A stretch of 64,000 nucleotides of DNA from an uncultured Bacteroidales bacterium (GCA_963818295.1 CAWFRW010000007.1:74938-138937), one strand, 5' to 3'; counted from the first letter of the stretch, positions 10,844 through 64,000 are shown. The notes: a model not told the origin generated them from the sequence alone. A program made the numbers and translations.

Positions 10844-10855
10844 TTTTTTGCTGTT
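10844..10855 (+). promoter_or_regulatory. promoter-like 12-mer AATATATTTGTT (contains TAnnTTTG)
   Basis: Same 12-mer as at 11268 and 48709. TAnnTTTG is the Bacteroidota -7 promoter element. No ORF follows within about 500 nt. Confidence 0.3.
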
Positions 10856-11267
10856 CAGTATCCCTGTTACATGGTGGTACATAATGTTTTCAGAAAGAGT
10901 GTTATTACTGAGGGTTAAAAGTAATAGTGGAGGTGAAAATCAACTCCACTATTTACGACCTAACCTAACCTGTAAAGAATGTCTCGTTTTCCTGTTCCTT
11001 TTCTTTAAATTTTAAATTAATACTTCCGTATTTTCTGAGGTACGGTTTACCTGTTTGCTTCCGATTAAACCAAAGGATGTGCCAGAATTTATCTGATTTC
11101 CTGAAAGCAACAGCCTCCTGTCTGCATGTGACTTAATATCAATGATTAACAGAACTAATCTAATTTATACAGCAGAAATTGACCTGAAAAAAAACGGAGC
11201 CGGGATGAAATTCCGGTGAAAAATTCGCACATGTGTGCGAAAACGGACCTATAAGGAATTAATATTT

Positions 11268-11279: not shown

Positions 11280-11383
11280 TTACGGACCATTCTTAGTGCA
11301 AATCAGCCGGATGCTGTCTCTGATTTGCATTAGGAAAGCACCCGGTTGTTTTGCGATTAGTTATTAACCAATATTGTGCTTAT

Positions 11384-13216: not shown

Positions 13217-13440
13217 AAATTTATCATGGTTATGCCATGGCATGATGAGTTTGGCGTGGCTTAGATCATCGAATCATCGGCAAGTCAACGATATTCGCAT
13301 GATCATGTGCAATGCACTGACATACTAAAATTGCAGTTTAGAAACGTTTATCTCAGTAACTGGATTTTCATTAATAAATTCTTCATTTTTACTAAAATGT
13401 ATTTACCATTTTATGCTATTATATTTAATAATTGGTAATT

Positions 13441-13520
13441 ATGACTCTTAAAATTATACTGATTATTACTATTTTTGCATCCTTATTTAGTGCATCTTTA
13501 GGAGATGCATTTTTCATTTT
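13441..13520 (+). promoter_or_regulatory. candidate thr leader: Ile/Thr-rich short ORF plus terminator-like hairpin
   Basis: ATG 13441 encodes MTLKIILIITIF…. TGCATCT (13491-13497) pairs with AGATGCA (13503-13509), followed by TTTTTCATTTT, ending 15 nt before the thrA ATG. Confidence 0.3.
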
Positions 13521-13531
13521 AGAAAAGGTAA

Positions 13532-15966
<2,435 letters not shown>

Positions 15967-15978
15967 AGAGCGTAGATT

Positions 15979-17347
15979 TTGAAGAATCAATTATACTATT
16001 CAACCAATCTGAAGTCAGACAGAGCTACCTTCAGGGAAGCACTGCTTAAGGGACTTGCTCCTGACGGCGGACTATACATGCCTGAATCAATTCCTTTTAT
16101 TGAAAGGGATGAAATGAAAGGATTTTCCGGCAAAAAATATTTTGAAATTGCCTTTTCAGTCCTGAACAGATTAATCGGCAATGAGATCGATGCAAGCGAC
16201 CTTCTTGAACTCTGCAGGGATGCCTATTATTTTGATGTGCCTCTCGAGAAAGTGAACAACCGGAAATATATACTATGCGTCTCGATCAGGGTCCTACAGC
16301 CTCCTTCAAGGATTTTGCTGCAAGGATGATGAGCAGGCTTATGCAGCATTATCTCTCTCTCAGCAACAGGCATCTGACAATCCTTACTGCAACATCAGGC
16401 GATACAGGAAGCGCTGTAGCCAATGCCTTCTTCGGACTAAAAAATATAAATGTAATTATTCTCTTCCCCTGCCAGTGAAGTAACTGCAATGCAGAGGAAG
16501 CAGATGACTACACTCAATGACAATATCAGTGTAATATCCCTGAATGGCAAATTTGATGACTGCCAGAGACTTGTAAAACAGGCTTTTACAGATCCTTCTC
16601 TTTCGGCAGTCCCGCTCTCATCTGCCAATTCGATAAACATCGGAAGGCTCTTGCCACAATCGGTCTATTATATTTATGCGTGGTCGAGACTGGCAGAAAG
16701 TATTGAGGATAAGGCTGTTTTCAGTGTTCCTTCCGGCAATTTCGGCAACCTGATGGGTGGCCTTATTGCAAGGCAGATGGGCCTTCCTGTTGAAAAATTT
16801 ATACTGTCCACAAATGAGAATGATGAAGTCCCTGAATTCCTCCGGACAGGTATTTATAACTCCATATCACCCTCACTCAATTGCATCTCAAGTGCAATGA
16901 ATGTCGGACATCCAAGTAATCTCGCCAGAATTGTTGCATTATACGGAGGAATGATGGATGAAACAGGTACAATCCATAAGGAGCCAGACCTGACAAGGAA
17001 TGCGGAAAGATCTTTATGGAATAAGTGTTACCGATAACGAGACCAGGGAAACTATTTCAGAGATATTCAGGGATTAGGGGTATTTTACTCGAGCCGCACG
17101 GAGCAATTGCATGGCGTGGAATGAATGAGTATCTGAGACAGAATGAAATCCCGGAAAATAATGACAAGCTGTTTATTTCGCTGGAAACAGCTCATCCTGC
17201 AAAATTTCCTGAAGAGTTACGCCGGATACTGAATACAGAACCATCGCTTCCTGAATCTCTGAAAGGCATTGAAGCAAAATCAGAAAACTATAAAACATGG
17301 ATAATAATTATGATTTGCTCAGGAAGTTTATCCTCAATAATTTTTAA
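15979..17347 (+). pseudogene. thrC: threonine synthase (several frame changes)
   Basis: LYYSTN…LAPDGGLYMPESIPF N-terminus and the PLP-lysine motif GPTASFKDFAA. Fragments 15979..16329, 16275..16478, 16489..17037 and 17025..17357; the true tail …SENYKT-MDNNYDLLRKFILNNF-stop ends at 17347. Confidence 0.9.
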
Positions 17348-17367
17348 ATACGTGTAACTGGTAAGAT

Positions 17368-17980
17368 ATGTATGTAATTTGTTCTGATCTCGAAGGGGTT
17401 TTTGTACCCGAAATATGGATAAATGTTTCAAAACAAACCGGTATTGATGAATTGAAGCTTACTACAAGAGATATAAGCGATTATGATGTATTGATGAAGA
17501 GAAGACTGGAACTGCTTGACGAACACAATCTTACACTTCATGACGTTCAGAGGGTCATATCGCCAGCTCAAACCACTTCCCGGTGCAATTGAATTTGTAG
17601 ACTGGGCCCGCTCATGCACACAGCTGATAGTTGTTTCCGACACATTTATAGAATTTGCCGATCCGCTTATAAGACAACTTGGAAGACCTACCCTGTTATG
17701 CCACCATCTCACCACCGATGGTGACGGAAAAATAACAAATTACAACCTCCGGCAAAAAGATGCAAAGAAGAAGGTAGTAGAGTCTCTGCAAAATCTTAAT
17801 TACAAAGTCATTGCAATCGGGGATTCCTATAATGACCTGAACATGCTCAGAAAAGCTGAACTTGGAATACTTTTTAATGCCCCTCAGAATATTAAAGATG
17901 AAAACACGGACCTTTTATCTGTGAATTCATTCGATGAACTCAGGGAAGTAATAACAAGACATCTCAACGGGGAGATATAA
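17368..17980 (+). pseudogene. thrH: phosphoserine phosphatase / homoserine phosphotransferase ThrH (one frameshift near 17560)
   Basis: Collinear, from memory, with Pseudomonas ThrH: CSDLEGVFVPEIWI…TTRDISDYDVLMKRRLELLDEH…; then …LKPLPGAIEFVDW…SDTF.EF..PL.RQLG.PTLLCH…LRQKD…IAIGDSYNDLNML. Confidence 0.75.
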
Positions 17981-18125
17981 ACAAAACATCATATATATCA
18001 TATCTACATATCAGAAGGGCAACTTCAATTTGGCTTACTTCAACCCTTCATTTTGACCGATATTGCATATTCATATGCAGTTAATAGAACAGATAATCAT
18101 GGTCGTAAATTGATTTTCTTCGTTT

Positions 18126-18180
18126 ACCCCGACCCCATGGGGAGCGAAGAAAATCGATTTTCTCCCCTTGGGGCCGGGGT
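18126..18180. repeat. 55-nt near-perfect palindrome (likely bidirectional terminator)
   Basis: ACCCCGACCCCATGGGGAG…centre AGAAAATCGATTTTCT…CTCCCCTTGGGGCCGGGGT, followed by an A-run. Lies after thrH. Confidence 0.8.
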
Positions 18181-18298
18181 AAAAAAATTGATTTTCGAGC
18201 GGTGGGTCAAAGCCTGTTTCTTTTTTTTTACAGATAGACTGATGTTTGCAATAATATTTTTATATTTTTACCCCATCTGAAATTTAAGCCTGATCCCT

Positions 18299-19798
18299 AT
18301 GAAATTACCTCCTTCATCCAAAAACTGGCTGACAATCATCGGTTCAATAATTGCAGCAATAAATCTTCTTCTTATTCTGCTTCTCTTTGTCATATCCACT
18401 ATTTTTGACAAGGGGAGTACCAATCTCGGGCTTTTTATCTATATAATCCTTCCGGGGTTTCTGATCTTCGGACTGCTTCTTATTCCAATCGGGATGTTTC
18501 TTGAGAGGAAAAGGATCTTTAAGGGTCTGGTTCATGAGGCGGCCCGTCTGCCATATATTGATCTGAATGATCCAAGCCACAGGAATGGTTTTATTATTTT
18601 TACAATTACAACAATCATAGTACTTTTTCTCTCAACACTTGGAAGTTTCAAGGCCTATCATATAACTGAATCAGTTGAATTTTGCGGAACCTTATGTCAC
18701 CAGGTAATGGAGCCAGAACATACAGCCTATCTGAATTCTCCTCATGCAAACGTTGCATGCGTAGAATGCCATGTAGGATCAGGAGCATCATGGTATGTAA
18801 AATCGAAGTTATCAGGTCTGCATCAGGTATATGCAGTAATGACAAACATTTATCCCCGGCCTATTGAGACACCTCTTCACGACCTGCGTCCTGCAAGGGA
18901 GACTTGCGAAAAATGCCACTGGCCTCAGAAATTTTATGCAAGATCGCTGTGGACTAACAAATATTTTCTTGCCGATTCTGCAAATACGGAATGGGATATA
19001 ATGCTTCAGATGAAAACAGGTCCGGAGTACAGCGGCTTAGGATTGAAAGAAGGAATTCACTGGCATATAAATCCTGATGTAAATATTGAATATATCTCTG
19101 AAAATGATAAGCGTGAGAATATTACTTATGTAAAATATACAAACAAATCGACCGGTAAGGTAACAATCTACAGAAATGAGAATAATCCTGTCTCAGACAG
19201 TCTTATTTCGGCATCTTCAACAAGAACAATGGATTGTATTGATTGTCACAACCGTCCTTCGCACAACTATAAATCACCTTCTGTTTATTTCAACAAAGCA
19301 ATGCTTACAGGCGCTGTTTCAAAAAGCATCCCATTTTTCAAGAAGGCAGCAATGGATATTTTGCGTGAAACCTTTACTGACAAAGACACTGCCATGATGA
19401 AAATTGAAGAGGGCATTGCAAGATTTTACAAAACAGATTACAGTGATTATTATGATAAAAACAGGAATCTTATTGACAGCTCTGTAGCATCAGTACAGAA
19501 GGCATTCAACCAGAATACTTTCCCAAGGATGAAGGTGACATATGATCATTATCCTGAGCATATCGGACATCTCGAATCAGATGGCTGTTTCAGGTGTCAC
19601 AATGATTCTTTTAAATCTGAAGATGGCAGAACGATCTCAAGGGACTGTAATCAGTGCCATACAATAGTGGGACAGGGAACTCCTGGCAATATGCAGTACA
19701 CAAGCATAAGAGAAAATCTGGAATTCCAGCATCCTGTTGATATTGGAACTGCATGGAAAGAATCCAATTGTTCGGAATGCCACAGCGCTCTTTATTAA
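18299..19798 (+). CDS. membrane-anchored multihaem c-type cytochrome, NapC/NirT-type (ImcH-like)
   Basis: Intact 499-aa ORF with three N-terminal TM helices. Six CxxCH motifs (CVECH, CEKCH, CIDCH, CFRCH, CNQCH, CSECH) plus one CGTLCH (CxxxCH). Confidence 0.8.
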   Translation: MKLPPSSKNWLTIIGSIIAAINLLLILLLFVISTIFDKGSTNLGLFIYIILPGFLIFGLLLIPIGMFLERKRIFKGLVHEAARLPYIDLNDPSHRNGFIIFTITTIIVLFLSTLGSFKAYHITESVEFCGTLCHQVMEPEHTAYLNSPHANVACVECHVGSGASWYVKSKLSGLHQVYAVMTNIYPRPIETPLHDLRPARETCEKCHWPQKFYARSLWTNKYFLADSANTEWDIMLQMKTGPEYSGLGLKEGIHWHINPDVNIEYISENDKRENITYVKYTNKSTGKVTIYRNENNPVSDSLISASSTRTMDCIDCHNRPSHNYKSPSVYFNKAMLTGAVSKSIPFFKKAAMDILRETFTDKDTAMMKIEEGIARFYKTDYSDYYDKNRNLIDSSVASVQKAFNQNTFPRMKVTYDHYPEHIGHLESDGCFRCHNDSFKSEDGRTISRDCNQCHTIVGQGTPGNMQYTSIRENLEFQHPVDIGTAWKESNCSECHSALY

Positions 19799-19899
19799 CC
19801 GTTGAAATTCCTGTAGAATTCAAATCATCCGCACGAAAAAATTTCTTTAAAATAACAGTATAATTGAGATAGTCTTACAAAAATATTTATAAAATCAAT

Positions 19900-21441
19900 A
19901 TGAAATCATCTGCAGTAAAAAATCGTATTATCCCGGCTTTTTTGACCCTTTTAAGGATACTGATAGGCTGGCAGTTTTTATACGAAGGACTTATTAAATT
20001 ATTCAATCCCGCCTGGACAGCCAGGCCATTTCTTGAAGGTTCGAGGTGGATTTTCGGCGATATTTTCAGGTGGATGATTTCAGGCAATACAGGTATGTGG
20101 CTCGTTGATACGGCTAATGCATACGGACTAACTCTTATAGGAATAGCGCTTATCCTTGGAATTTTCACAAGACTTGCAGCATGGGGTGGCGTTACGCTCC
20201 TGCTTATGTATTATGTTGCCTATCCACCTTTCGGAGGATTCAGCTATGGAGTGCCATCTGAAGGCAGTTATCTGATTGTTAACAAGAACATGATTGAGAT
20301 TTTTGCACTTGTTATGCTGGCGTTAACTGATGCAGGCAACTATTATGGGCTTGACGGACTGCGAAAAAGGAAGAAAGCTGAAGCCGCAGAAACCAAGGTA
20401 ATTGTAGAAGAACCTGATCCAAAGGAACCTAATTCACGTCGCGAACTGTTGAAAGGACTTGCCGGAATACCTGTTCTTGCAGTATTCTCAGGAGCCCTTG
20501 CAAGGAATATGTCCGAACTCGGACCAGATGCAATGTCAGGAGCAACGATTAAGGTTGATTTCAAGCAGAAGAATGATCTCAAGGGAAAACTCCCCGAAGG
20601 CAAACTGGGCAATCTGAATGTAAGCAGAATGATCCTGGGCTGCAACCTTATCGGAGGCTGGTCACATGCACGCGACCTCATTTATTCCGATAAGCTTTTC
20701 AAGGCATACAACAATGAGAGAAAGATTATTGAGACCCTTTACCTGGCAGAGCAGGCAGGAATAAATACTTCATTCATGGTAACCCAGTATTATGACACTT
20801 TCAATAAATATAAAAGCATATATAACAGCAATATGCAATCAATCTGCCAGGCTATGCTGCCCGACAAGGATTTCTTCTCGAATATAAATATGGCTATTGA
20901 CGCCGGTGCCACAGCAATTTATATACAGGGAGGCGAGGGTGACAGGTATTGCAACTCCCAGAAAGTAGATATGATCAACAAAGCTGTAGAGTATATTAAG
21001 AAGAACGGTTTCATGGCAGGAATGGGAGCACATTCAATTGAATCAATCAAAACAGTTGAAACTGCCGGTATCCCGGTTGATTTTTATGTAAAGACTTTAC
21101 ACCATGACAAATACTGGTCGGCTCATCCTATTGAGAACCGTGTCGAATACAGTGTTATAGGTCCGAACTCACCTGATCACAATCAGCTGCATGAAAATAT
21201 GTGGGATCTGTTTCCTCAGAAGACGATCGATTATATGAAGAGCATAAACAAACCATGGTTTGCCTTCAAGGTTCTGGCAGCAGGAGCAATTGAACCTAAG
21301 GAAGGCTTCAGGTTTGCATTCGAAAACGGAGCCGACTTTATCTGTGTTGGAATGTTTGATTTCCAGGTGATTGACAATGTCAATACAGCCTGTGAAGTCC
21401 TGGGTTCGCTTAACAACAGGGAAAGAGCCTGGTTCGCCTAG
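19900..21441 (+). CDS. DoxX-family membrane domain fused to an internal Tat-like motif and a ~330-aa soluble domain of unknown family
   Basis: Intact 513-aa ORF. Residues 1-150 are DoxX-like (FLTLLRILIGWQFLYEGLIK…AYPPFGG). A charged linker follows, then SRRELLKGLAGIPVLAVFSGALA (20434-20502), then a probable alpha/beta-barrel-like domain. Confidence 0.65.
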   Translation: MKSSAVKNRIIPAFLTLLRILIGWQFLYEGLIKLFNPAWTARPFLEGSRWIFGDIFRWMISGNTGMWLVDTANAYGLTLIGIALILGIFTRLAAWGGVTLLLMYYVAYPPFGGFSYGVPSEGSYLIVNKNMIEIFALVMLALTDAGNYYGLDGLRKRKKAEAAETKVIVEEPDPKEPNSRRELLKGLAGIPVLAVFSGALARNMSELGPDAMSGATIKVDFKQKNDLKGKLPEGKLGNLNVSRMILGCNLIGGWSHARDLIYSDKLFKAYNNERKIIETLYLAEQAGINTSFMVTQYYDTFNKYKSIYNSNMQSICQAMLPDKDFFSNINMAIDAGATAIYIQGGEGDRYCNSQKVDMINKAVEYIKKNGFMAGMGAHSIESIKTVETAGIPVDFYVKTLHHDKYWSAHPIENRVEYSVIGPNSPDHNQLHENMWDLFPQKTIDYMKSINKPWFAFKVLAAGAIEPKEGFRFAFENGADFICVGMFDFQVIDNVNTACEVLGSLNNRERAWFA

Positions 21442-22357: not shown

Positions 22358-23555
22358 TCAGCCAAGAAACTCAACAGGAACATTTACAAGCCTTGAAATA
22401 TCGGTAATTTTTTCCCTGATCCTGAACTTCTTCACACAGTTCACACTGCAGACAGTGACAATCATTACATGGATTATCCGATATTCCAATCTCGCTGAGC
22501 AGAGAATGTGCCATTGAAGGGCTTGAATATCCATAGGCATACATATATGCCCTCATAAGGTCAGGGACAGGAAGGTTTCCGGGACATTGAGAAATGCAGT
22601 TGCTGCAGCCATTGCAATAAAGTCCGGTTTCTGCGGTCGGAACAACGAGATCATTTTTTTCCTGATCAGTAAGTGTTATATCAGTCAGCATTTTCACATT
22701 CAGGTCAAGCTGATCAAAGTCTGTCATTCCGGGAATTGCAGTGGTTATATCTTCATTTGACAACGCCCATTTCAGAGCTGCCGAAGTATTTATAGGTTTG
22801 GTCTTTTCCTTGTCGAAGAATCCACCGCCGGCGAGAGTCTTCATTGCTACAATGCCAATTCCTGCCTCGGGATGCCTTTCTTATTGCACTTTTCAACTCT
22901 TCTGAATAAGTCTGCATGAAATTGTATGATGTAAGAATCACATCCCATTTTCCTTTCTCAGCTGCTGCATTGATCACAGCTGTTTCATTCCTGTGAGTTG
23001 AGAATCCAGTAAACCTGACCTTACCTTCCTTTCTTAATATCTTCAGGGCTTCGAGAATGGGTTTAAAGGTCAGCACTTCAGGATTATCAACACTGTGAAC
23101 ATATAAAATATCAACATAATCCATTTGCAGCCGGGAAAGACTGAGACTGAATTTTTCCAGAAAGTCTTCAGTTGTGGTCTGTTTCGTCGGCTTCCCTTCT
23201 TTGTCAAGCGCTGCAGGCTTCACCTTTGTGGCAAGAAGGAAGGAATCCCTTGGATAATCCTTCAGAACATTTCCCAGCATGGTTTCATTATTGCCATTCT
23301 GGTAACCATGAGCAGTATCAAACAGTTTTATCCCTTTCTCATATGCTGCCTTGCAGAGCCCGGGATTATCAGCTCTCATAACCCCGAAACTGATTACAGG
23401 GATCTTCAATCCGGTTTTTCCGAGAGTCCTGTATATAACTTCATTTTCCTGAATACCCTGTGAGGCAGTTATGATTGACGGAGCAAATGCCATCACCCCG
23501 GCAGCTCCTGTAATTCCTGTTCTCAGAAAACCTCTTCTGTCTATGTTCTTACCAT
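22358..23555 (-). pseudogene. Tat-signal aldo/keto reductase with C-terminal Cys-rich Fe-S domain (at least 3 frame changes)
   Basis: ATG 23553-23555 is followed by a one-base shift into …DRRGFLRTGITGAAG (Tat motif). AKR core in 22753..23496. Cys clusters CNGCSNCISQCP and C..C..C in 22371..22844, with tail 22358..22540. Confidence 0.75.
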
Positions 23556-23594: not shown

Positions 23595-24348
23595 TTATCT
23601 CAGGCTTCTTATCCGGACTTCAATACCGGAATCTTTCAGAAGTTTAACCAATTCATCAGGATTTGTATCACCGTAATGATATGGATAAAGTATTTTTGGT
23701 TTAAATGCCCTGGCAGCGTCGGCTACCATTGCCGGGGTCATTGTATATGGCAGATTCATCGGGAGGAATGCAATATCAATATTCTTAAGAGCCTTCATTT
23801 CGGGGGTATTTTCAGTATCACCTGCAACATAGATTCTTTTCCCTCCCATTGTCAGTATAAATCCGACTCCTGCTCCCTTTGGATGAAAAGGCTGTCCGGG
23901 AGCACGTTCATTTACAATATTATATGCTGCCACAGCTTCAATAGCAATATTCCCGATATTCTTTATGTCTCCTGCTTTCACTGCAGCAGCACCCGTTAAC
24001 CTTTGCAGCAGCTGCCCCATTGCATAGAATCACTGTTCCGCTCTTTCTTAATGCATCTATTAGGCTATTATCAAGATGATCTGAGTGTTCATGCGTAACC
24101 AGTATGATATCTGCTTTGGGAAGGTTATCATAATTTCCTGAACTTTTTACCGGATCAACATAAATCACTATATCATTCATTTTGAACATCAGTGATCCAT
24201 GTCCGATAAAATCAAGTTCAACATTTCCTGCAGCTGTTACCAACTGGTCAGATGCAGGAAGATTCTGAGATTTAACCTGGAAAGTCATTGCAGTAAGGAT
24301 TAATGTAAACGCAACTCCCAAAACTTCTGATTTATAACAATTTTTCAT
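23595..24348 (-). pseudogene. secreted MBL-fold metallo-hydrolase (one frameshift near 24000)
   Basis: Signal peptide plus the VTHEHSDHLD metallo-beta-lactamase motif in 23938..24348. The C-terminal half is in 23595..24020. Confidence 0.75.
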
Positions 24349-37768: not shown

Positions 37769-40443
37769 TCAATCTTTTATATTAACAACCGGAACCTCTG
37801 TAGGAATTTTAATTGTGAATTTTGCACCTCCGTTCTGGCGGTTTTCAACAGTTATTGTTCCATTATGAGCTTCTACAAATCCTTTTGCAATAGAGAGTCC
37901 CAACCCTGTCCCCCTGCTTCCGAACCTTCAACCCTGTAAAATTTATTAAAGATAAGTGAAATTTCCTTTCGCGGAAAACCCGGACCTCTGTCCATAACCT
38001 GAATTGTAAGTAATCCATTGTCACAAAATGCTTTAACCCTAAGATTTGTTGATTTTGAAGCATATTGTGTTGCATTGTAGATAAGGTTATAGAGAACCTG
38101 TTCCATCAATCCGAAGTCGATCTTAACAAGTTGCATATCTTCAGGAATAACAATATGAAGGTTGAAAGGCTTAAGCTCATCACGGAGGTTTTCAAGAACA
38201 TTATTTATCAGATCGTGAATATCATACCAGTCGAGACGTGGAGTAATTCTTCCGCTTTCGAGTCTCGACATATTCAGGAGGTTTTCAATAAGTCTGTTTA
38301 ACCTTTTGGATGCTAAGAATATTTCAAGTGGAGAGCTCCTTTCTGATTTCTTCAGTATGCTGTGTTGTGAGCAATGAATCGGAAGCTCCCATAATTGTTG
38401 CAACAGGAATTCTAAGCTCATGCGAAATTGAATTAAAAAGAGTTTTATACAGTTTGTCTGATTCGTTTAATAAGAAGGCTTGTTTTGCCATATTCCGAAG
38501 ATATTCTCTTTCAAACTTTCCTGATATCTGGGAAATAAAAGCTTCCCAGAACTGTTCCTCTCCCTGGGTAAAGACAATATCCTGCTGTATTGCGATGACA
38601 CCCAAGTTCATCTGATTTCCCTTAAGAGGATAAAATGTATAGTTTGATGAAGGCAGAGTGTCAGTGTGTCTGCCGGCTTTGGCAGAGTGCTGAAATGTCC
38701 AGATTGCAACACTCATATCATTTTTTGAAATTGTAAAATTTGAATCTTTCTGGAGTGGATAATCAAGCTGGTTCGCATCATTTTTAAGCAAGATCCTGAA
38801 TTGAGCTGAAAATATTTTTTGATATCATTTTTGGCGATAGTTAATGACCTCTTCGATGCCATTAGCTGTAGAAAGTTCTCTTGTCAGCTGATAAAGAGCA
38901 TTTGTACGCGCCTCCCGGATTCTGATTTTCATCTCCTGTTTCTTGATTCTTGATGTAAGCACACCGCTTAGCAATGCAATTATGAAAAACATTATAAGCA
39001 TAAGCATATCCTCAGGTTTATCAACATGAAGAGTATACGGTGGCGGAATGAAAAAGAAATCCCAGATAAGGGCGCTCATTGTGGCTGCCAGAAGAATAGG
39101 ACCAGTACCAAAAAAGAATGCAAGAGTTGAAACAACAAACAATAATGCAAAAGAAACAACCTGGTAACCAATAAATCCTTTAATAAAAAAACAGACAACA
39201 GCCGCAAGTACAACTACTAATGCAGCAGTTAAATATTGGCGGATATTGGATGTGAATGAGGGCAGTGAAGCATGTGTTATGAATCTGTCTTTCGACTGAA
39301 TATCTGAACCAAATATATAAACATCAATATTTCCGCTGTAGCGGATAAGCCTGTTTACGAAGTTGCCAAGCCTCAAAAGAGTATAAGAGATTACGTACAC
39401 GGGGCTTACCAATTATTATGTGCGTTATATTTTCTTTCTGTGCAAAATCCACGATTGCCTTCACCATATCACGATTTGTAACTAATCCGGAATTTAATAC
39501 CTAATTGTCTGGCAAGATTGATATTCTTATTCAGCTGTTCACTTTCCTTTTTATCAGGTTTATAGGAGGTTTCGACATAAATAGCCTGCAGATCTGCCCC
39601 CATAGTATATGACAGGTTTTTTGCCCATCTCAGCAACTTGGCTGATTGCTGGGTATGACTTACTGCTACAAGCAGATGCAATCCTGATTTCCATGGACCC
39701 TTGATCCGCTTCAGCTGCATGTATTCATGGAGTTGCTTATCGACTCTGTCGGCAACTATCCGCAACGCCATTTCTCTTAAAGCAGTTATGTTTCCCTTGC
39801 GGAAAAAACTTTCAACAGCTTCCTGCGACCGTTCCTGGGTATATACTTTACCTTCTGAAAGTCGCTGCAACAATTCTTCAGGAGTAAGATCAATAACTTC
39901 AATTTCATCTGCGTTCTCAAAAATCTCATCCGGAATTGTTTCCCTGACAATAATACCTGTAATCTGAGCGACAGTATCTGAACGGCTCTCAAGATGCTGT
40001 ACATTAACAGTTGTATATACATTTATTCCGTTATCCAGAATTTCCAAGAACATCCTGATACCTTTTGGCATGACGGCTTCCGGGGGAATTAGTATGTGCA
40101 AGTTCATCAACCAGAACTATCTGTGGCTTCCGTGCAATAATTGCATCAAGATCCATTTCATAAAGTGTCGCGGTTTTATAGCTGTACTCCTTCCGGGGAA
40201 TAATCTCAAGGCCATTGAGAAGGTCAGCAGTCTCCTTCCGGTTGTGGGTTTCAACATAACCGACCACAACATCACATCTTTTTAGTTTCTCCGCCTGGGC
40301 AGTCTGGAGCATTGTATAAGTCTTCCCCACGCCGGCACACATTCCAAAGAATATTTTCAGTTTGCCTCGTTTGCTTTTTTCCTCTTCAAGTTTTATTGAG
40401 GCTAAAAGTTCATCGGGATCCGGACGGTCGTTGCTAAGCCCAT
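37769..40443 (-). pseudogene. kdpD: full-length sensor histidine kinase KdpD (at least 7 frame changes)
   Basis: Fragments in order: KdpD N-domain with P-loop (GMCAGVGKTYTML, 40031..40342); Usp domain (39469..40110); 4-TM domain (38825..39412); GAF-like (38324..38791); HisKA/HATPase (37873..38421); and a tail [24 protein letters not shown]…VVNIKD-stop (37769-37771). Confidence 0.85.
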
Positions 40444-45826: not shown

Positions 45827-45877
45827 GTCGGAAGTCGGAAGCAGGCTTCGGTCTTCGGCTTCGGACTTCCGTCTTCC
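45827..45877. repeat. 7-nt stuttered inverted word island inside the kdp operon
   Basis: GTCGGAA GTCGGAA GCAGG CTTCGGT CTTCGGC TTCGGAC TTCCGTC. The left and right halves are near reverse complements, so it can form a hairpin. It fills most of the 87-nt kdpF-kdpA spacer. Confidence 0.85.
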
Positions 45878-53214: not shown

Positions 53215-53249
53215 TGAGGAATCTCCCGGACCGATCACAATTCCACCTT

Positions 53250-53277
53250 CAGCCCTCAGCCTTCTGCCCTTAGCCCT
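53250..53277. repeat. 7-nt stuttered word island CAGCCCT CAGCCTT CTGCCCT TAGCCCT
   Basis: Four consecutive heptamers with one or two substitutions each. Confidence 0.8.
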
Positions 53278-56567: not shown

Positions 56568-56673
56568 ATTAATTGCTAAAATGTCTTCAGTGGATTATCC
56601 GGCCAATCATAGAGATTGAGATAAATTAGGCAATAGAAATTTAGTAATTGATGTAATTTAGAGTGTGAGTGTT

Positions 56674-57381
56674 ATGAGCGAATTAATTGAAATATTAAGA
56701 CAAGAACTCTTAAGTAATGCGGATGAAAAGGTAAAAAAGTCCGGAGAAAGATTTTTTAAGGAAGAGGTCAGGCTATATGGTATAAAATCAGCCACTGTTG
56801 TAAGATTGGAAAGGAACATTACAAGCACTTAAAGGATAGAAAGCAAAGCTGAAATATTCAGTCTTTGCGAAGAATTATGGAAATCGGGAATCATGGAGGA
56901 GTCGTTTATTGCATGCAACTGGTCATATTATGTAAATAAACAGTACGAACAGTCTGACTTTGAAATCTTTAACAGATGGGTGAACAATTATGTAGGCAAC
57001 TGGGCATCATGTGACACTCTCTGCAATCATTCTGTCGGCACTCTTGTCGAAATGTATCCCATCCTTCTTGCAGAACTGAAAAAATGGGCAAAATCGAAAA
57101 ACCGCTGGGTAAAGCGTGCATCCTCAGTTTCACTTATCGTACCTGCAAGGCGCGGATTGTTTCTGGATGACATCTTTGAAATAGCTGATATTCTGCACTC
57201 TGACCAGGATGACATGGTTCAGAAAGGGTATGGCTGGATGCTTAAGGCTGCCAGCCAGGCTCATCAGGAAGAGGTCTTCCGGTATGTAATGAATAAGAAG
57301 GCAACAATGCCCAGAACATCACTCAGATATGCAATAGAAAAGATGCCGGCAGAATTAAAAGCAAGGGCTATGGCAAAATAG
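56674..57381 (+). pseudogene. DNA alkylation repair protein (HEAT-like repeat family), 1-2 frame changes near 56820-56890
   Basis: MSELIEILRQELLSNADEKVKKSGERFFKEEVRLYGIKSA… from ATG 56674. The remainder is in 56893..57381 (…NRWVKRASSVSLI…VQKGYGWMLK…). Confidence 0.7.
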
Positions 57382-57422
57382 TAGTGCCAGTTTTTTACCT
57401 TTGCATTTTAAAAAATTCCGCG

Positions 57423-59114
57423 ATGGTCAGAATATTTTCATTTATTCCTTTTAATTTTTATTCAATTCAGTCTGTTCTCTCAGGACCGGATCACCGGTCA
57501 TGATTTTGCTACAAGATCGGAAGTTATTGCCCGCAACGGGATGGCTGCTACAAGTCATCCGCTTGCAACCCAGGCTGCTCTTGATATTCTCAAAAAAGGA
57601 GGCAATGCAATAGATGCTGCAATTGCTGCCAATGCTGTACTTGGAGTTGTAGAACCAACAGGAGCCGGTATTGGCGGAGATATTTTTGCACTGATCTGGA
57701 GTGCAGATAAAGAAAAGCTATATGGATTAAATGGCAGCGGCAGATCTCCAAGATCTCTTAAAATGGAATATTTCAGGGAGAATGGCTATGATTTCATTCC
57801 TTCATACGGTCCTCTGCCGGTTTCTGTACCCGGATGTGTTGACGGCTGGTATGAGATGAATGAGATGTTCGGACGTCTTTCGATGAAAGATATTCTCCAG
57901 CCTGCAATAAATTATGCCAGGGATGGATTTCCGGTTACTGAAGTTATTGCATGGTCGCTTGCAAGGAACTGCTGAGCTCCTTAAGGACTATCCCAATATA
58001 AAAGAGGTATATATGCCCGGAGGCAAATCTCCTTCAAAGGGGGAAATATTTAAAAATCCGCTGCTTGCAAACACTCTCGAAAAAATTGTAAGAGGTGGCA
58101 GAAATGAGTTTTACAGGGGAAGTATAGCAAGGGATATTGATCTTTTCATGAAAAAACAGGGAGGTTTTCTCTCATATGAAGACCTGGCACGTCATCATTC
58201 CGAATGGGTGGAACCTGTAAGCACAACATACCGGGGCTATGAAGTCTGGGAACTGCCTCCAAACGGACAGGGAATTGCTGCCCTGCAGATGCTGAATATC
58301 CTTGAAGGATTTGATCTTGCCTCAATGGGATTCGGATCAGCTGAATATATTCATGTTTTTACCGAAGCAAAAAAACTTGCTTTTGAAGACAGGGCAAGGT
58401 ATTATGCTGATCCTGTTTTCAGTGCAACACCTGTTGCACAGCTTCTCTCAAAGAAATATGCAGCTGAAAGACGCAAACTTATCAACCCCGATAAGGCAGC
58501 AAAGATCTATGACAGTGGTAAAATAGAAGCAGGCAATACAATATATCTGACAGTTGCTGACAGGTACGGCAATATGGTATCACTTATCCAGAGCAATTAC
58601 AGAGGCATGGGATCAGGAATGTGTCCTACCGGACTGGGATTTGTTCTGCAGGACAGGGGTGAAATGTTCAGCCTCTCAGAAGGTCATAACAATATGTATG
58701 CTCCGGGCAAAAGACCTTTTCATACAATAATACCTGCCTTTATAACAAAGAACCATAAGCCCTGGATCAGCTTTGGTGTTATGGGTGGTGATATGCAGCC
58801 TCAGGGACATGTACAGATTATTGTCAACCTTATTGATTTCAAAATGAATCTTCAGGAGGCAGGTGATGCCCCGAGGATACATCATATAGGATCATCCGAA
58901 CCGACAGGCCAGCAGATGACCGATGGCGGAATCCTTCTGCTTGAAAACGGATTTCGCTGGGAGGTGATACAGAAACTTATGAGACATGGGACATAAAGTT
59001 CAATGGGATCTTGGAGGTTATGGAGGATATCAGGCAATAATGTGGGATGCCAAAAATAAAGTCTGGTTCGGAGCCTCAGAATCAAGGAAAGACGGACAGG
59101 CTGCAGGGTATTAG
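57423..59114 (+). pseudogene. ggt: gamma-glutamyltransferase (at least 3 frame changes)
   Basis: …NGMAATSHPLATQAALDILKKGGNAIDAAIA…, GNTIYLTVADRYGNMVSLIQSN (Thr nucleophile region), MGGDMQPQGH. The tail …YGGYQAIMWD…ESRKDGQAAGY-stop ends at 59114. Confidence 0.9.
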
Positions 59115-59129
59115 AAGGAGTGAAGGACT

Positions 59130-59166
59130 GAGGCGTGAGGCGTGCAGGCGTCAGTGCGTGAGGCAA
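59130..59166. repeat. 7/8-nt stuttered word island GAGGCGT GAGGCGT GCAGGCGT CAGTGCGT GAGGCAA
   Basis: Consecutive near-identical words in the convergent spacer between ggt and the NuoB-like gene. Further GAGG-containing words run to about 59195. Confidence 0.8.
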
Positions 59167-59201
59167 GAATGTGAGGGATGAGGTAGTGAGGCAAGTGTAA
59201 A

Positions 59202-59647
59202 TTATTTTATACCAAGCAAATCAACCAATCCGTTGATAAAAGTAAGCGGATGAACCGGGTTACCCGGAACATACAGATCAATATGATTCTGTTCAATGAA
59301 TTTTCTGTCAAGGGCCGGACTTCCGGCAAAGATTCCTCCGCTTATTGCATCTGTTCCTGCAAGTATTATAATTTTTGGTGAAGGTGTGGCATCATAGGTT
59401 ATCTGAAGCGGTTCAGCCATATTCCTTGATATTGGTCCTGTAATAACAATTCCGTCAGCATGGCGCGGTGAAGCAACAAATTCAATCCCATACCGTCCCA
59501 TATCAAAATTCACATTACCGCATGCATTCAGTTCAAGTTCAGTGCTGTTATCTCCACCTGCAGAAACCTGTCTCAGTTTGAGTGAACCGCTGAAATAGCT
59601 TCGTATCTCCTTTCTGATCAGATCAGGATTGAGTCTTACAGGTTCAT
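59202..59647 (-). pseudogene. NuoB/HycG-like small subunit lacking all four [4Fe-4S] cysteine ligands (start unresolved; likely ATG 59645-59647 plus a one-base shift)
   Basis: …RQVSAGGDNSTELE…RYGIEFVASPRHADGIVITGPISRNM…IIILAGTDAISGGIF…YVPGNPVHP…. The NuoB core is conserved but Cys is replaced at every ligand position. Confidence 0.75.
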
Positions 59648-59953
59648 GCTGAACCTTCTGTTAATTATCAGCCTGTTCCTCTCATTTGCAGAGAGTCTGT
59701 AATCAGTTGTAAAGCTTATTTTCTCTGGAAACAGTCTTGCACATTCACCGCAGAAGGTACACTTGCCAAGGTCAATCGTGAATGGATCGGTATTAATTGC
59801 ATCTGTCGGACAGATATCAGCAATGGCCTTTCCATCAACGCTCTCCATACTTATTTCAGGCCTTCCCCTGAATATTCCGGGAACTTTTGCCGTTGTCAGA
59901 TCAGGAATAAATTGTTTACCCTGGTGATATAATATTTTAAGTGTTCTTAACAT
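59636..59953 (-). CDS. NuoI/HycF-like ferredoxin subunit retaining ligands for only one [4Fe-4S] cluster
   Basis: Intact 105-aa ORF. Motif 1 is degenerate (SVDGKAIADICP, only the last Cys is kept). Motif 2 is CTFCGECARLFP (first three Cys kept, the fourth is Phe). Confidence 0.7.
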   Translation of the reverse strand: MLRTLKILYHQGKQFIPDLTTAKVPGIFRGRPEISMESVDGKAIADICPTDAINTDPFTIDLGKCTFCGECARLFPEKISFTTDYRLSANERNRLIINRRFSMNL

Positions 59954-59974
59954 TGCACTGATTCATTTAAATAT

Positions 59975-61481
59975 CTAAAGATCATGTCCGCAATATGACA
60001 GATTGAAACTCTTGTTGCACACCGGGAAATCTGAAATTTCATTATTCCTCACTGCAAGAGCCAGAGCAAGCCAGTTATGAAATGATGGATCCTTAACCTT
60101 ATATAATAAGCAGCTCTCCATTTTTGTCTGTTATTGCAGCATGGCAGATCTCTCCTCTCCATCCTTCGGTAAGGGATATTGCGAACATATCAGGTTCAGG
60201 CTGAATGTTTCCGTTCTGAGCTCATTCCAGGTTCAGGTATCTGTTGCAGCAATTGCCTTATATAGCCAATAGACTGTTTCACCTCTTCCTTTCTTATCTG
60301 TACTCTTGAATATACATCACCATGATGTTTCAGAACAGGAGCATGGTTAAATTCACTGTACAGGCCATATGGATGAGAACTCCGGATATCCCTGTTCAAT
60401 GCATTCATTCTGGCTGACATCCCAACTGTACCGATTGACAGCAACTGATCATAGCTTAACATTCCTGTCCTTTCAAATCTCGAGAGACAGCTTGGCATTT
60501 TTGAAAGCTCACTGTTCATTTCAATAAAGTCGGGTTCAAAATCATTCAGAACCTTTTCAAGCCTTGCAAGCCAGTTCGTTTGTAAATGGATATGGATTAT
60601 AACCAGCTCTCATCAAGCCCTTTTGCCAGACGGTTGCCGCACCATTCCTGGAAAAAATTAATAATTGGTGTTCTGAGCCTTCCGAACACTGAACTGCCAA
60701 GCTGGTATGCAACATCAGTGCATATAGCACTGAGATCACCTGTATGTATTGCAATACGCTCAATTTCCTGGGCCAGAGTCCTGTGCATAAAGAATATCCC
60801 TGCTCTGCGAAATACCGCAAAGACTCTCCCACAAATAGGCAAAAGCAGTTGTATGACCAACAGCACTGTCACCTGCAACAGATTCAGCCAGAATAGTCCG
60901 CTGAAGAAGCTTCTTCTTTTCAAGAAACAGTTGTTCAACTCCCCGGTGCTGATATCCAAGCTGAATTTCAAGGTGAAGAATCTGTTCCCCGTTACAGACA
61001 AACCTGAAATGGCCTGGTTCAATAATTCCTGCATGAACAGGCCCTACTCCCACTTCATGAAGTTCTTCACTTGCAATATTAAAAAATGGGTAATCAGGTA
61101 TTATTTTTGATTTATCTGCCCTGCTTTCAGAATATCTGACTGGTTTTAGCCAGGGATGGTCATTATATGAAATATCAAAATTTTCATGTATTTCACGTTC
61201 AAATTTTTCAAAGGCAATATTCCTGGCAGAAAAAGAATTGAGGCGAATCTCCATGCATTTACCCTTGATGATGAAACCATTATATTATGCTTGATATCAT
61301 CAGCCATACAACAGATCAGCCTGATTGCATTGCTTTCCCTGTAACCAAAATAGAGAACACAATGTCTGTAAGGACTTTCCTCAGTAAGCGTTGTATTCAG
61401 CTCAAGGAAAATGCTATAGTCCATTTCAGGTATACTGCTTACCGGAACAGACTGATGGTTTAATATTGTTTTCAAGTTCAT
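59975..61481 (-). pseudogene. fused NuoC-NuoD / HycE-like large subunit lacking the Ni-Fe cysteine ligands (at least 4 frame changes)
   Basis: NuoC-like N-terminus (FEREIHENFDISYNDHPWL); GPVHAGIIEPGHFRF; L1 position reads ESVAGDSAVGH; the C-terminus reads FPVCNKSFNLSYCGHDL-stop. Fragments 61146..61508, 60760..61254, 60597..61034 (middle part, …LAQEIERIAIHTGDL…), 60557..60832 and 60196..60519, plus an unlisted tail. Confidence 0.8.
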
Positions 61482-61482
61482 A

Positions 61483-62913
61483 TCAGACGGGTAAAATTTT
61501 AACTGCATCCTGAATTAACTGAACAAATATGGCCGGAGGATTGAGTCCAAGCCAGATAGCTGTAAACATCAGCAGATACTGAGTCAGTGATTCCCATGGG
61601 TTTATCTTTGGGATCTTTGATTCATCCAATCCGGGAACAGGCAGAAACAGGATCTTCAGGATATTCTTTCCAAAAGCCCAGATAACAATTGTAAGCAACA
61701 ATAAAACAATTGCCAGAAGGATAATATAATTTGCTTCAAAGAGTGATCTGAAAATCAGAAATTCACTCACAAACAGACCTGAAGGAGGCATTGCTGTTGC
61801 GCTTATAAAACCAAGAAGCAATACAATAGCCCCGGCAGGATTATATTTAAAATAATTCCCTACATGCTGAATGCTTTTGCTCTGAAATGTCCTGTATAAC
61901 TGGTTAAACTGAAAAAACAGGCCGGATTTTACAAAGGCATGCAAAATAATATGCAGAACAGCTGCATAATAACCAACTCCTCCGGCAGCAATTCCAAGCA
62001 TTACAATACCCATATGCTCAATACCCGAATAGGCAAACATTCTTTTTATATTCATAACCTTTGTCATATAGACAGTTGCTACAAATATTGAGAGGATAGC
62101 TGCTATAAAGATTACAAGGTTTGCCCAATGAAAAAGTGAAGTATGGGAAACAACAGCATAAAATCTGAAGATTCCGACAAAACCAAGATTCATGAGGACG
62201 CTTGCAAGCAAAGCACCTGCCGGAGCCGGTGCTTTATCCTTGGCATCGATACCGGCAGTATACATTGGGACCAAGTCCAAGTTTTGCGGTAAATCCTGTA
62301 AAGATAAAGAGGAAAGCCAGCCTGAGCCAGAATGGATTAAGCTTGTCTCTGTAATGCCATCAGGTTTGAGAAGGAGAGATCATTCGATCCGGCATGCTGG
62401 AGAGAAAGACTGAGAAAAAGTATGCCGATGAAAACAAATGTAATGCTTATTGCACAAATAAATACATATTTCCATGTTCCCTCAAGGGCAAGTTTATTCC
62501 TGTGATGATAAATAAGCATTGAGGCCGAAAGTGTTGTCATCTCGGTAAAAATCCAGATCACTGCAATATGATTGGCAAGATATGCTGCCGTAATTGAGGT
62601 TATAAGAAATACAAGCGCTGCAAAATATATGGCCCGCGACTCAGGTGTTTCATCGTGACGCATTATATACAGATAGCTGTGAAAAAGTGCCGGGATTGTA
62701 ATAATGCTCAAAGTCATAAGGAGCAGTAATCCAAGAGAATCAAATGTAAAATATTCAAGAACATGTGCTCTTATAATTGTAACATGCAAATATTGTAAAA
62801 CAGGTCTGAAGTATTCCGAAAATAACAATGAGAATATTGTTTACAACAGTGTTCCTGTTGGCAAAAATCAGTCCTGAAATTACAAATGCGCTTATAAGAT
62901 AGATCCCGGTCAT
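61483..62913 (-). pseudogene. NuoL/M/N (HyfB/F)-type antiporter-like membrane subunit (at least 2 frame changes)
   Basis: ATG 62911-62913 (MTGIYLISAFVISGL…). Fragments 62337..62828 and 61483..62280 (…FAYSGIEHMGIVMLGIA…ILHAFVKSGLF…). Confidence 0.8.
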
Positions 62914-62924
62914 TTTTTTCTTGT

Positions 62925-63557
62925 TTAATAATCTTTCAAATTGCTGAGCTGATCAACATCAACATCTTTAAATACATCACCGATTTTGTTCAGGAAGATC
63001 CCCAGTATTAAAACACTTGCAAATACATCAAGCATGATACCAAGGTTTACAAGGTTCGGCATTTCGTTCCCGACAGCAAGTGAAAGGACAAAAACACCGT
63101 TTTCAATCATCAGATAGCCCATAACATGGGTAATTATCTTTTTTCTTGAAGCGATGAAGTACAGTCCTGTGAAAAGAGTCGACAATGATACAATGAAGAA
63201 GATCTTATCGAGGTGAGTATCCTGTATTGAATTTGCAAGCAAAACTGTTACCACAACGATCATTGTAATAATTATCAGGGAGACAAAGTGTGGCAGATAG
63301 GGTTCAGTCTCCCTTGTAATTTTGTTTCTCTTTATCAGATAGCCTAAAAACATTGGGACGGCAAGTGCCCTGAATACAATTGTCTCAAGCAGGATCAGTA
63401 CAAGGTTCCAGGTCTGAATATCCTTAAGCTGAAGGAAAGTGACGCCAAAAAGAATAAATCCCTGCAGGGCAAGAACCCTTACATAAGTAATTATCCTGTT
63501 CGCAATTGAAACATATAAAAGGCTAATAATGAATATGATCAGAAGTACGTTTGTCAT
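62925..63557 (-). CDS. HyfE-like small polytopic membrane subunit
   Basis: Intact 210-aa ORF with about 7 TM helices, positioned as hyfE is in Hyf-type clusters (…GYLMIENGVFVLSLAVG…). Confidence 0.65.
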   Translation of the reverse strand: MTNVLLIIFIISLLYVSIANRIITYVRVLALQGFILFGVTFLQLKDIQTWNLVLILLETIVFRALAVPMFLGYLIKRNKITRETEPYLPHFVSLIIITMIVVVTVLLANSIQDTHLDKIFFIVSLSTLFTGLYFIASRKKIITHVMGYLMIENGVFVLSLAVGNEMPNLVNLGIMLDVFASVLILGIFLNKIGDVFKDVDVDQLSNLKDY

Positions 63558-63567
63558 TGTGAATTAT

Positions 63568-64000
63568 TTAAACAAATTTTTCCAGAACAAGCAATACACC
63601 AAGAAAGATTAAAAAGCTGACCGATGAGAGAGCCAGAATAAACTGAGGATTATGGTTCATCCTGAAGCGTGCCATGAATGATTCTATCAATCCTACAGTA
63701 ACTGCAAACAATGCCTGAATAAACAGGTAAAGTGGAATCAGCAAGGGAGAGTGACAATGATCCGATAAAAAAATCTGCAATAATTGCCCCGTACATTGCA
63801 AACTTAAGATAACCGGCTGTAAGTATAAGTCCAAGATCGAATCCGCTGTTGTCCAGAACCATTACTTCGTGAATCATTGTTAATTCAAGATGGGTTTTTG
63901 GGTCATCCAGGGGCATCCTGCTGTTCTCGATCATAGCAATCAGAACAAGTACACCTGCAGCAAGCCCTCCAAGAGTATATGTAATTGATGATCCAAGATG
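63568..64000 (-). pseudogene. NuoH/HycD/HyfC-like membrane subunit (3' part only; runs off the window; one frameshift near 63830)
   Basis: …ENSRMPLDDPKTHLELTMIHEVMVLDNSGFDLGL… (63650..63934) and the tail …FMARFRMNHNPQFILALS… (63568..63834). Confidence 0.75.

Follow-up and report, generated by a model that had tools for sequence, protein, structure and literature searches.

How might a membrane complex with the gene order of an energy-converting hydrogenase work once nearly all of its metal sites have been replaced? This question is raised by a gene cluster at positions 59202-64000 of a 64,000-nucleotide stretch of DNA (the window, meaning the whole stretch) from an uncultured Bacteroidales bacterium (GCA_963818295.1 CAWFRW010000007.1:74938-138937). 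We annotated the minus-strand open reading frame (ORF) fragments of this interval with Pfam and NCBIfam models and aligned the region 56600-64000 to the intact locus of a Bacteroidales metagenome-assembled genome (MAG), which shares 79% DNA identity with the window and serves as the reference (L002). The cluster is very probably the 3' part of an ehr (energy-converting-hydrogenase-related) operon, and it consists of five genes, a partial EhrB followed by EhrC, EhrD, EhrL and EhrS, all on the minus strand, as are all ehr coordinates given below. Judged by its residues, the encoded complex is neither a hydrogenase nor a complex I module. It has retained a single [4Fe-4S] site, and by analogy it might be a gradient-driven, Mrp-like translocator of cations or protons that is redox-inert or only redox-sensing, a reading to which we assign a rough probability of 35-40%.

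A sequence-only reading of the window had proposed that the metal sites are replaced except for one [4Fe-4S], and residue alignments to HycE, MbhL, MbhJ and HycG bear this out. The large subunit EhrL (59975..61481, with an alternative upstream start at 61508) is a 499-residue fused NuoC-NuoD/HycE-like protein that matches PF00346 (E 3e-20, and also the NuoD and FpoD models), and its best solved match is HycE (7z0s_E, E 8.7e-32), followed by MbhL (6cfw_L) and Nqo4. In the former N-terminal NiFe motif, ESVAGDSAVGH (60853..60885), the segment VAGDSAVGH aligns to VCGICGFAH of HycE, with Ala202 and Ser205 standing at the cysteine positions. The former C-terminal motif forms the end of the protein, NLSYCGHDL-stop (59978..60004), in which NLSYCG aligns to DPCYSC and the cysteines have become Ser493 and Gly496. 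All four NiFe cysteines are replaced in this way (A, S, S, G). EhrL ends with SYCGHDL, five residues past the position aligned to DPCY of HycE, and the alignment reveals no cleavable C-terminal extension, as the earlier reading had noticed. Residue counts were made over the best 80 of at least 433 species genomes (one genome per species) that encode the fusion of ferredoxin and NuoB domains described below, with EhrL counted over 72 and EhrD over 69 loci. Position 202 is Ala in 68 and Ser in 4 loci, and position 205 is Ser in 43, Thr in 25 and Cys in only 2; cysteine is never found at 202, 493 or 496. Gly203, Asp204, His209, Ser493, Tyr494, Gly496 and Asp498 are each found in 72/72. The quinone-site residues His38 and Tyr87 of Nqo4 align to Ile153 and Gly203, both likewise invariant (72/72).

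The small subunit EhrS (59202..59953) is a 249-residue fusion of a truncated HycF/NuoI-like ferredoxin domain (residues 1 to about 100) and a NuoB/HycG-like domain (about 120-249). The sequence-only reading had listed six co-directional minus-strand genes. The strand and the common direction stand, and the number becomes five because the NuoI-like and NuoB-like ORFs are one fused gene: every relative has a single EhrS protein of 248-251 residues whose N-terminal half is the NuoI-like ORF of the window, where the two halves are kept apart by two insertions alone. PF00037 matches within 59636-59953, NF009053 (HycF) covers residues 2-103, and PF01058 matches 59202-59513 (E 8.5e-18); the solved matches of the C-terminal domain are MbhJ (6cfw_J, E 3.7e-20) and HycG (7z0s_G). 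We did not use an AlphaFold2 (AF2) model of EhrS, which was built from near-identical sequences only and had a predicted local distance difference test score (pLDDT) of 46.6.

Ferredoxins with two [4Fe-4S] clusters bind one of them with the last cysteine of motif 1 and the first three of motif 2. EhrS has kept the last cysteine of motif 1 (Cys48-Pro49), the first three being gone, and its motif 2 reads Cys65-x2-Cys68-x2-Cys71-x3-Phe75-Pro76, with Phe in place of the fourth cysteine. Four of the eight ferredoxin cysteines are thus lost and one [4Fe-4S] site is left, the sole intact Fe-S motif of the protein (59726..59812; Cys48, Cys65, Cys68 and Cys71). From the ferredoxin topology and the Thermus complex I structure, we take this cluster to be the equivalent of N6b, next to N2. 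The four former proximal, or N2-type, ligand positions (59247..59558) were located by alignment to MbhJ and HycG. The cysteines of the MbhJ segments SGSCNGCDIE, GACPTGG and PGCPPRP are replaced in EhrS by Asp134 and Thr137 (GGDNSTELE), Asp201 (GTDAISGG) and Asn231 (PGNPVHP).

A survey of relatives for the ligand-loss pattern, suggested with the earlier reading, found Asp134, Asp201, Asn231 and the four cluster cysteines each in 80/80 loci. Position 137 is more variable (C67/T9/N2/S1/A1, the window having Thr), and position 75 is mostly aromatic (F65/Y9/C3). The same ligand substitutions as in the window occur in thousands of intact database proteins besides the 80 species loci. Nearly all of the best 80 loci belong to Bacteroidota by name, one being filed under Candidatus Dadabacteria and two having no taxon name, and they include Bacteroidales, Chitinophagaceae, Saprospiraceae, Flavobacteriaceae, Mucilaginibacter, Prolixibacteraceae and Paludibacter; their EhrS identities are 69-84%. 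The cultured Chitinophagaceae among the carriers, Niastella vici and Flavihumibacter profundi, are presumably aerobes. The NuoB-like domain is the most constrained part of the complex, with 57% of its positions at least 97% invariant, compared with 35% in the ferredoxin domain, 39% in the NuoD-like domain and 19-25% in the antiporter-like subunits. Since neither the substituted residues nor the remaining cluster motif varies across 72-80 loci from several Bacteroidota orders, the ligand loss, on the evidence of these alignments, is the result of selection and not of decay, in agreement with what had been proposed from the window. Nor are the genes decaying in close relatives. An unbroken operon encoding proteins of 675, 673, 301, 210, 475, 508 and 249 residues is present on a metagenome contig (JGI sample 3300075153) with an EhrS of 97-98% identity.

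The ehr complex is not a hydrogenase, judging from the absence of the four NiFe cysteines, of a C-terminal extension and of nearby maturation genes: we found no hyp or hycI genes within about 17 kb downstream or in the flanks of relatives. It is not a complex I module either, because the N2 ligands are replaced, the quinone-site His and Tyr are absent, NuoA, J, E, F and G are missing from the complete operons of relatives, and canonical nuo genes can coexist with ehr. In a Paludibacter MAG (L073), a canonical nuo operon (11307-20747) lies immediately downstream of the ehr operon and encodes NuoB with four cysteines and NuoD with His38/Tyr87-type motifs, so Ehr is an addition to complex I rather than its replacement. 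A place inside a canonical nuo operon, which would have spoken against the earlier assignment, was not found, as the complete operons of relatives hold Ehr genes only. The homology to complex I (Nuo, 11-14 subunits) extends over the NuoB, C, D, H, I, K and L/M/N modules, and an L-shaped architecture is expected here.

Among known systems, E. coli Hyf/Hyc (PDB 7Z0S) gives the best sequence and fold matches (HycE, HycD, HycC and HycG). The order HyfB-C-(D)-E-F-G-H-I parallels EhrA-B-C-D-L-S, and in both systems a NuoC-like domain is fused to the large subunit. The Ehr complex differs from Hyf/Hyc in having neither NiFe ligands, C-terminal extension nor maturation genes, in the fusion and cofactor depletion of the HyfH and HyfI equivalents, and in the lack of a HyfA/HycB polyferredoxin and a formate dehydrogenase partner. 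The Pyrococcus complexes Mbh and Mbs/Mbx (PDB 6CFW, 6U8Y) provide top or near-top solved homologues (MbhJ, MbhL, MbhH and MbhM), Mbs/Mbx being a precedent for the loss of hydrogenase function in a group-4 relative. Mbh and Mbs have retained a chain of three clusters, a redox active site and Mrp-type small subunits; the Ehr complex, by contrast, has a single cluster site and lacks small subunits of this type.

Genome catalogues have listed Ehr complexes, a class that received its name in Geobacter sulfurreducens, since 2005, usually with an assumed role in electron transfer. For the Geobacter cluster GSU0739-45, we take the names EhrA-2, EhrB and EhrD and the gene order to be as used here. The other names (NuoL-like EhrA-1, HyfE-like EhrC, EhrL and EhrS) are published (PMC7894505), and the seven genes and four named subunit types of that gene list are matched in the present operons. 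The complete operons of relatives have six or seven genes, with one or two 670-residue HyfB/NuoL-like genes upstream (beyond position 64000 in the window), in the kept order [EhrA-1]-EhrA-2-EhrB-EhrC-EhrD-EhrL-EhrS. The six-gene version matches in composition the Desulfotomaculum cluster Desru_3260-65 (PMC3569383). The Ehr subunit set (NuoL-, NuoH-, HyfE- and NuoN/HyfF-like proteins plus EhrL and EhrS) is therefore present, and the mark of the class, the loss of the NiFe cysteines (PMC3569383, PMC10284858, PMC6349859), is shared: both known Ehr and the complex here have a large subunit without NiFe CxxC pairs. The likeness to Ehr suggested by the sequence-only reading thus withstood comparison. 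The function of Ehr has been called unknown (PMC6349859, PMC10284858, PMC10432482, PMC7894505, bioRxiv 10.1101/765248). The Bacteroidota complexes stand apart by the additional loss of the proximal-cluster ligands and of one of the two ferredoxin clusters, whereas other members of the fused-EhrS family keep two or three clusters. While the Ehr class is already known, we found no description of an N2-less single-cluster Ehr or of Bacteroidota Ehr in the literature searched, which did not extend to the class-defining work of Marreiros et al. 2013 (BBA 1827:198).

The wider family indicates how the depletion might have come about. A search of 1.84 billion representative proteins identified the fusion of about 250 residues as a broad family with three cofactor states: eight ferredoxin cysteines with four NuoB cysteines; a one-cluster ferredoxin with four NuoB cysteines; and a one-cluster ferredoxin with the NuoB cysteines replaced, often by D-x-D-[N/S/D/H]. 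Named members of the cysteine-bearing states come from Wallbacteria, Cloacimonadota and Nitrospirota, and Ehr has been reported in Nitrospira (PMC10284858). Protein-cluster look-ups of the fused-EhrS family returned no Geobacter member. Loci of all three states (L083, L084 and L086) encode a partner EhrL without the NiFe cysteines, and its AGD(S/T) and LSYCGxDL motifs are constant across the states. One of these loci (L083) has lost the NiFe ligands and kept three clusters, two (L084 and L086) have lost the distal ferredoxin cluster too, and the Bacteroidota have also lost N2. The NiFe site would thus have been lost first, then the distal ferredoxin cluster and then N2, with the Bacteroidota clade as the end point. 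Other N2-less clades have unrelated residues at the N2 positions, such as RHEL or HREA. In a separate locus (L087, 10001-10807), a 268-residue EhrS-like protein (P0129) with D/N/D/H at the former N2 positions occurs together with no other ehr genes, next to an AIRS-family gene and a gene for a MeaB/CobW-like GTPase.

The N-terminal 125 residues of EhrL are NuoC-like, with a PF00329 match in a few relatives. An AF2 model of EhrL (predicted template-modelling score 0.68; N-terminal domain pLDDT about 90) aligns full-length to fused HycE and NuoCD over 519-584 columns, as against about 330 for unfused NuoD, and matches HycE by Foldseek with E 5e-13 over 519 columns. In this domain, at residues 39-62 (window 61296-61367), His40, Cys41 and Cys58 are each found in 72/72 loci and Cys57 in 71/72. 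The four residues lie on two adjacent predicted beta-strands and are missing from the non-Bacteroidota EhrL of L083, L085 and L086. They may form a metal or disulfide site specific to this lineage and acquired in the clade that lost N2.

In the membrane arm, most of the relay residues are in place. Of EhrB, the NuoH/HycD-like subunit, the window contains the C-terminal 144 codons (63568..64000, running past the window end), the protein having 301 residues in relatives. The scanned window fragment has no Pfam or NCBIfam match, and its identity comes from the L002 orthologue, a NuoH-like protein that matches the window over residues 159-300 in two frames and whose full-length sequence has HycD (7z0s_D) as its best solved match (E 1.4e-22). 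Among 62 EhrB orthologues, 38% of positions are invariant, many of them acidic and including a modified motif in the loop between transmembrane helices (TM) 5 and 6. EhrC (62925..63557, unbroken) is a 210-residue HyfE-like subunit with a NuoK-like C-terminal half that contains the invariant Glu152. It matches NF008556, "hydrogenase 4 membrane subunit" (E 5.4e-21), and PF00420 (E 2e-5, under the gathering score), and a sequence search found no solved structure for it. EhrD (61483..62913) is a 475-residue HyfF/NuoM/N-like antiporter-type subunit that matches PF00361 (E 4.9e-34) and the models NF006427 and NF005044 for hydrogenase membrane subunit and hydrogenase 4 subunit F. Its TM5 Glu124, TM7 Lys210, His324/Lys328 and TM12 Glu383 are found in 69/69 loci. 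The TM8 Lys is replaced by Asn in 68/69 (window 62182-62211), unlike in the other two antiporter-like subunits, which are canonical, and the TM7b HxWLPxAH motif is altered to YTAGIDAK. EhrA-1 and EhrA-2 of the relatives, whose best solved matches are MbhH (E 6e-60) and HycC, retain TM5 Glu, TM7 Lys, HxWLPxAH, TM8 Lys, TM11 His/Lys and TM12 Glu. The Mrp-type relay set (TM5 Glu, TM7 Lys, TM8 Lys and TM12 Lys/Glu) is accordingly complete in EhrA-1 and EhrA-2 and partial in EhrD. The subunit set and order named in the sequence-only reading (NuoH-, HyfE-, NuoL/M/N-, NuoC-NuoD-, NuoI- and NuoB-like) are real by these family models and the L002 orthologues, and the spacers within the cluster range from -3 to 21 nt, in keeping with the overlaps or gaps of at most 21 nt described there. 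In some Bacteroidales, a second, divergent partial cluster with EhrA-, EhrB- and EhrC-like genes (52-70% identity) stands directly upstream of the main operon (L019 1-3302; L007 1-1338; L024 1-1309).

What could such a complex do? In complex I, neighbouring clusters are spaced at about 10 Å edge to edge, and tunnelling reaches its limit at about 14 Å. With these distances, the lone cluster could not feed the former active site, so that electron transfer is probably not what drives the complex. Electrons would lack a continuous route to the interface between subunits from which hydrogenases and complex I draw their power. Ion translocation is suggested by the intact relay residues, and the membrane arm, with its retained Lys/Glu/His relay, might use a gradient that already exists to translocate cations or protons. 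Still seated on EhrB, the former hydrogenase module would now be a highly conserved chamber with a carboxylate lining (Asp134 and Asp201 of EhrS, Asp204 and Glu154 of EhrL) that could couple or gate transport, and the single cluster might be structural or serve as a sensor of redox state or O2. The Mrp antiporter (PDB 6Z16, 7QRU, 7D3U) has antiporter-like subunits with the same Lys/Glu/His relay and needs no redox input. It has neither a NuoH-like subunit nor a peripheral arm, both of which are present here; conversely, the Ehr operon has no homologues of MrpB, E, F or G, its content being fully covered by Ehr subunits. In favour of a gradient-driven translocator are also the lack of a conserved redox partner nearby, the absent quinone-site His and Tyr, the possible coexistence with nuo and the carriers that we take to be aerobes. 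It is possible, if doubtful, that a machine of the complex-I/hydrogenase type has been turned by evolution into a redox-independent or redox-gated ion translocator in which the NiFe and N2 sites are now invariant carboxylates. Two aspartates would approximate the charge of an oxidised cluster with its thiolates, and the chamber might then be run by protonation or cation binding instead of electrons.

Several points weigh against a gradient-driven translocator. Ion transport by Ehr, as well as its specificity and direction, is proposed by analogy. One of the three antiporter-like modules, EhrD, may be inactive because its TM8 Lys and WLPxAH motif are lost. A plain antiporter needs no peripheral arm, yet this arm is the most conserved part and has an invariant cluster. 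The assignment of this cluster to N6b is tentative, as it derives from ferredoxin topology and the Thermus structure. The second N2 cysteine (position 137) is kept in 67/80 loci, and the set Asp/Cys/Asp/Asn could coordinate a metal of some kind, in which case a redox path would be open again. Crp/Fnr-type regulators (cyclic-nucleotide-binding plus helix-turn-helix domains) flank about 13/80 loci (8 + 5; for example L078 2434-3204 and L010 395-1051), which hints at O2- or redox-dependent regulation. Finally, the Ehr subunits of Geobacter are elevated on formate (PMC7894505), a hint that Ehr in general may be linked to redox processes.

In the leading alternative, which we consider unlikely, the complex would still be a redox-driven pump in which the [4Fe-4S] cluster takes electrons from ferredoxin, flavodoxin or an unlinked dehydrogenase and a non-cysteinyl metal site or an unknown cofactor relays them. 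The metal site would be formed by Asp134, Cys/Thr137, Asp201 and Asn231, and a new active site could lie at Asp204, Ser493 and His497 of EhrL. Such a pump would account for the cluster cysteines found in all 80 loci and for invariant replacements that are able to ligate metal (Asp, Asp, Asn and mostly Cys), for the recurrence of D-x-D-[N/S/D/H] in divergent fused EhrS clusters, and for the high conservation of the former active-site region. It is also in line with the formate response just mentioned and with the treatment of Ehr as a probable redox-coupled complex in the literature (PMC6349859, PMC10432482). The ligand set itself is more difficult to reconcile with this view, as Thr occupies the sole cysteine position in 9/80 loci including the window, and other N2-less clades have the unrelated residues given above. 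We know of no [4Fe-4S] cluster held by one Cys together with Asp, Asp and Asn. In addition, clustering of the flanking ORFs of the 80 loci found no conserved partner oxidoreductase gene next to the operon, the quinone-site residues are absent, and the donor-facing distal cluster has no ligands.

A non-redox role of the chamber could also be catalytic. PF00361 subunits coupled to non-redox chemistry have precedents, and the complex might perform another energy-coupled vectorial reaction, resembling CO2 hydration by CupA/NDH-1MS or DAB-type systems, in which the chamber would bind a small substrate and be driven by the proton-motive force. Consistent with such chemistry, the peripheral chamber is more constrained than the antiporter-like subunits, and the lining of the former NiFe site includes conserved Asp, His, Ser and Tyr. 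We regard it as improbable, as the idea is drawn purely from analogy with these precedents, neither a carbonic-anhydrase-like nor any other catalytic gene was found in or beside the operon, and no catalytic metal motif is identifiable.

In the Bacteroidota clade, the electron path has been dismantled stepwise with the scaffold, one cluster and the membrane relay under strong purifying selection, which argues against conventional redox-driven pumping as the conserved function, at least in this branch. The single-cluster Ehr is standard equipment in hundreds of Bacteroidota species, presumably including aerobes. If the complex is a gradient-driven translocator, it would be a natural "cofactor-less Q-module", a means of telling apart the conformational coupling and the redox chemistry of complex I, and in cultured hosts (Niastella, Flavihumibacter and Mucilaginibacter relatives) the drive of the membrane arm by the peripheral chamber could be studied without redox chemistry. 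The relevance lies with specialists of complex I and hydrogenases, and the system is not of a new kind.

The window copy itself is interrupted by frame shifts. The alignment to L002 reveals about 12 frame-breaking events in the ehr coding sequence, all 1-nt insertions except for one of 2 nt, at positions accurate to a few bases only because they were placed against a 79%-identical reference. They lie near 63739 in EhrB; near 62763, 62358 and 62276 in EhrD; near 61256 (2 nt), 60782, 60624, 60565, 60223 and 60104 in EhrL; and near 59659 and 59646, 13 nt apart, in EhrS. The convergent ggt has two frame shifts, with L002 Ggt matching the window in three frames by tblastn, and the adjoining alkylation-repair gene also carries 1-nt insertions. 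These shifts might mean that the window copy is a young pseudogene cluster and that the family is functional elsewhere, which we consider very improbable. Such decay would fit the contrast between ehr, with 12 breaks in 4.75 kb, and the more distant M49 peptidase, PHO4, PhoU, KdpA and KdpB genes, with 3 in 6.3 kb (p = 0.004). However, the rate in ehr, 2.5 per kb, is similar to the 1.7 per kb of ggt plus the alkylation-repair gene (p = 0.33), both being higher than in the farther genes (about 0.5 per kb, p about 0.004-0.005), and the excess is therefore regional and not gene-specific. Insertions outnumber deletions by 15:1 (p = 5e-4). Once the insertion columns are removed, all seven genes of the aligned region are without internal stops, and the alignment to L002 reveals neither nonsense codons nor larger deletions in the corrected genes. 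Corrected, stop-free EhrD is 92.6% identical to its L002 counterpart, with 193 synonymous and 35 nonsynonymous codon differences, and EhrC is 96% identical, with 84 and 8. The protein identities to L002 (81-96%) are as high as those of intact orthologues from other species. Because of the insertion bias, the absence of stops after correction, the synonymous excess, the similar rates in the neighbouring genes and the intact relative at 97-98% identity, we conclude that the frame shifts of the window are assembly or sequencing errors and not decay, and the pseudogene reading was rejected as the main explanation on the correction, codon and rate evidence. The weakest alternative, that of a normal group-4 hydrogenase or nuo module whose cysteines are hidden by errors, has next to no probability although the region is rich in indels, being refuted by the same substitutions in thousands of intact proteins and 80/80 loci and by the canonical NuoB and NuoD that coexist with intact motifs in L073.

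Between 41994 and 64000 of the window, the density of insertions is uneven, and the part that begins with the alkylation-repair gene and runs to the end of the window has the higher value of 1.7-2.5 per kb. Pairs of overlapping same-strand ORFs elsewhere (22371-23496, 23595-24348 and 37873-38791) suggest split genes throughout the window. With insertion errors at 0.5-2.5 per kb, interpretations of this contig in terms of gene decay are unsafe.

The operon's 3' end is marked by ggt, a gamma-glutamyltranspeptidase gene outside the complex (57442..59111, plus strand), which was located by tblastn with L002 Ggt and matches PF01019 in relatives; it is convergent, and no hyp or hycI gene follows, as had been stated before. 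The flanking-ORF clusters of the 80 loci are lineage-specific, namely ggt with the alkylation-repair gene in Bacteroidales, the scattered Crp/Fnr-like regulators and a methyltransferase-like ORF. A terminator scan found no hairpin terminator in the spacer between ehr and ggt, and the whole 64 kb contains no tRNA genes and no Rfam families at the gathering threshold. A heptamer tandem repeat, TGAGGCG x 4.9 (59129-59164), fills the interval from the EhrS stop codon to that of ggt. In L002, the corresponding spacer (about 10770-10960) holds a much longer array of related 7-mers, with about 130 nt more, and similar short 7-nt arrays are found in the window at 7738-7777, 45844-45876 and 53246-53275. 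Between the M49 peptidase and the alkylation-repair gene, the window has three genes more than L002 (53621-56567), encoding a glyoxalase-family protein, a PIG-L deacetylase-family protein and a xylose-isomerase-like TIM barrel with a Tat-type signal.

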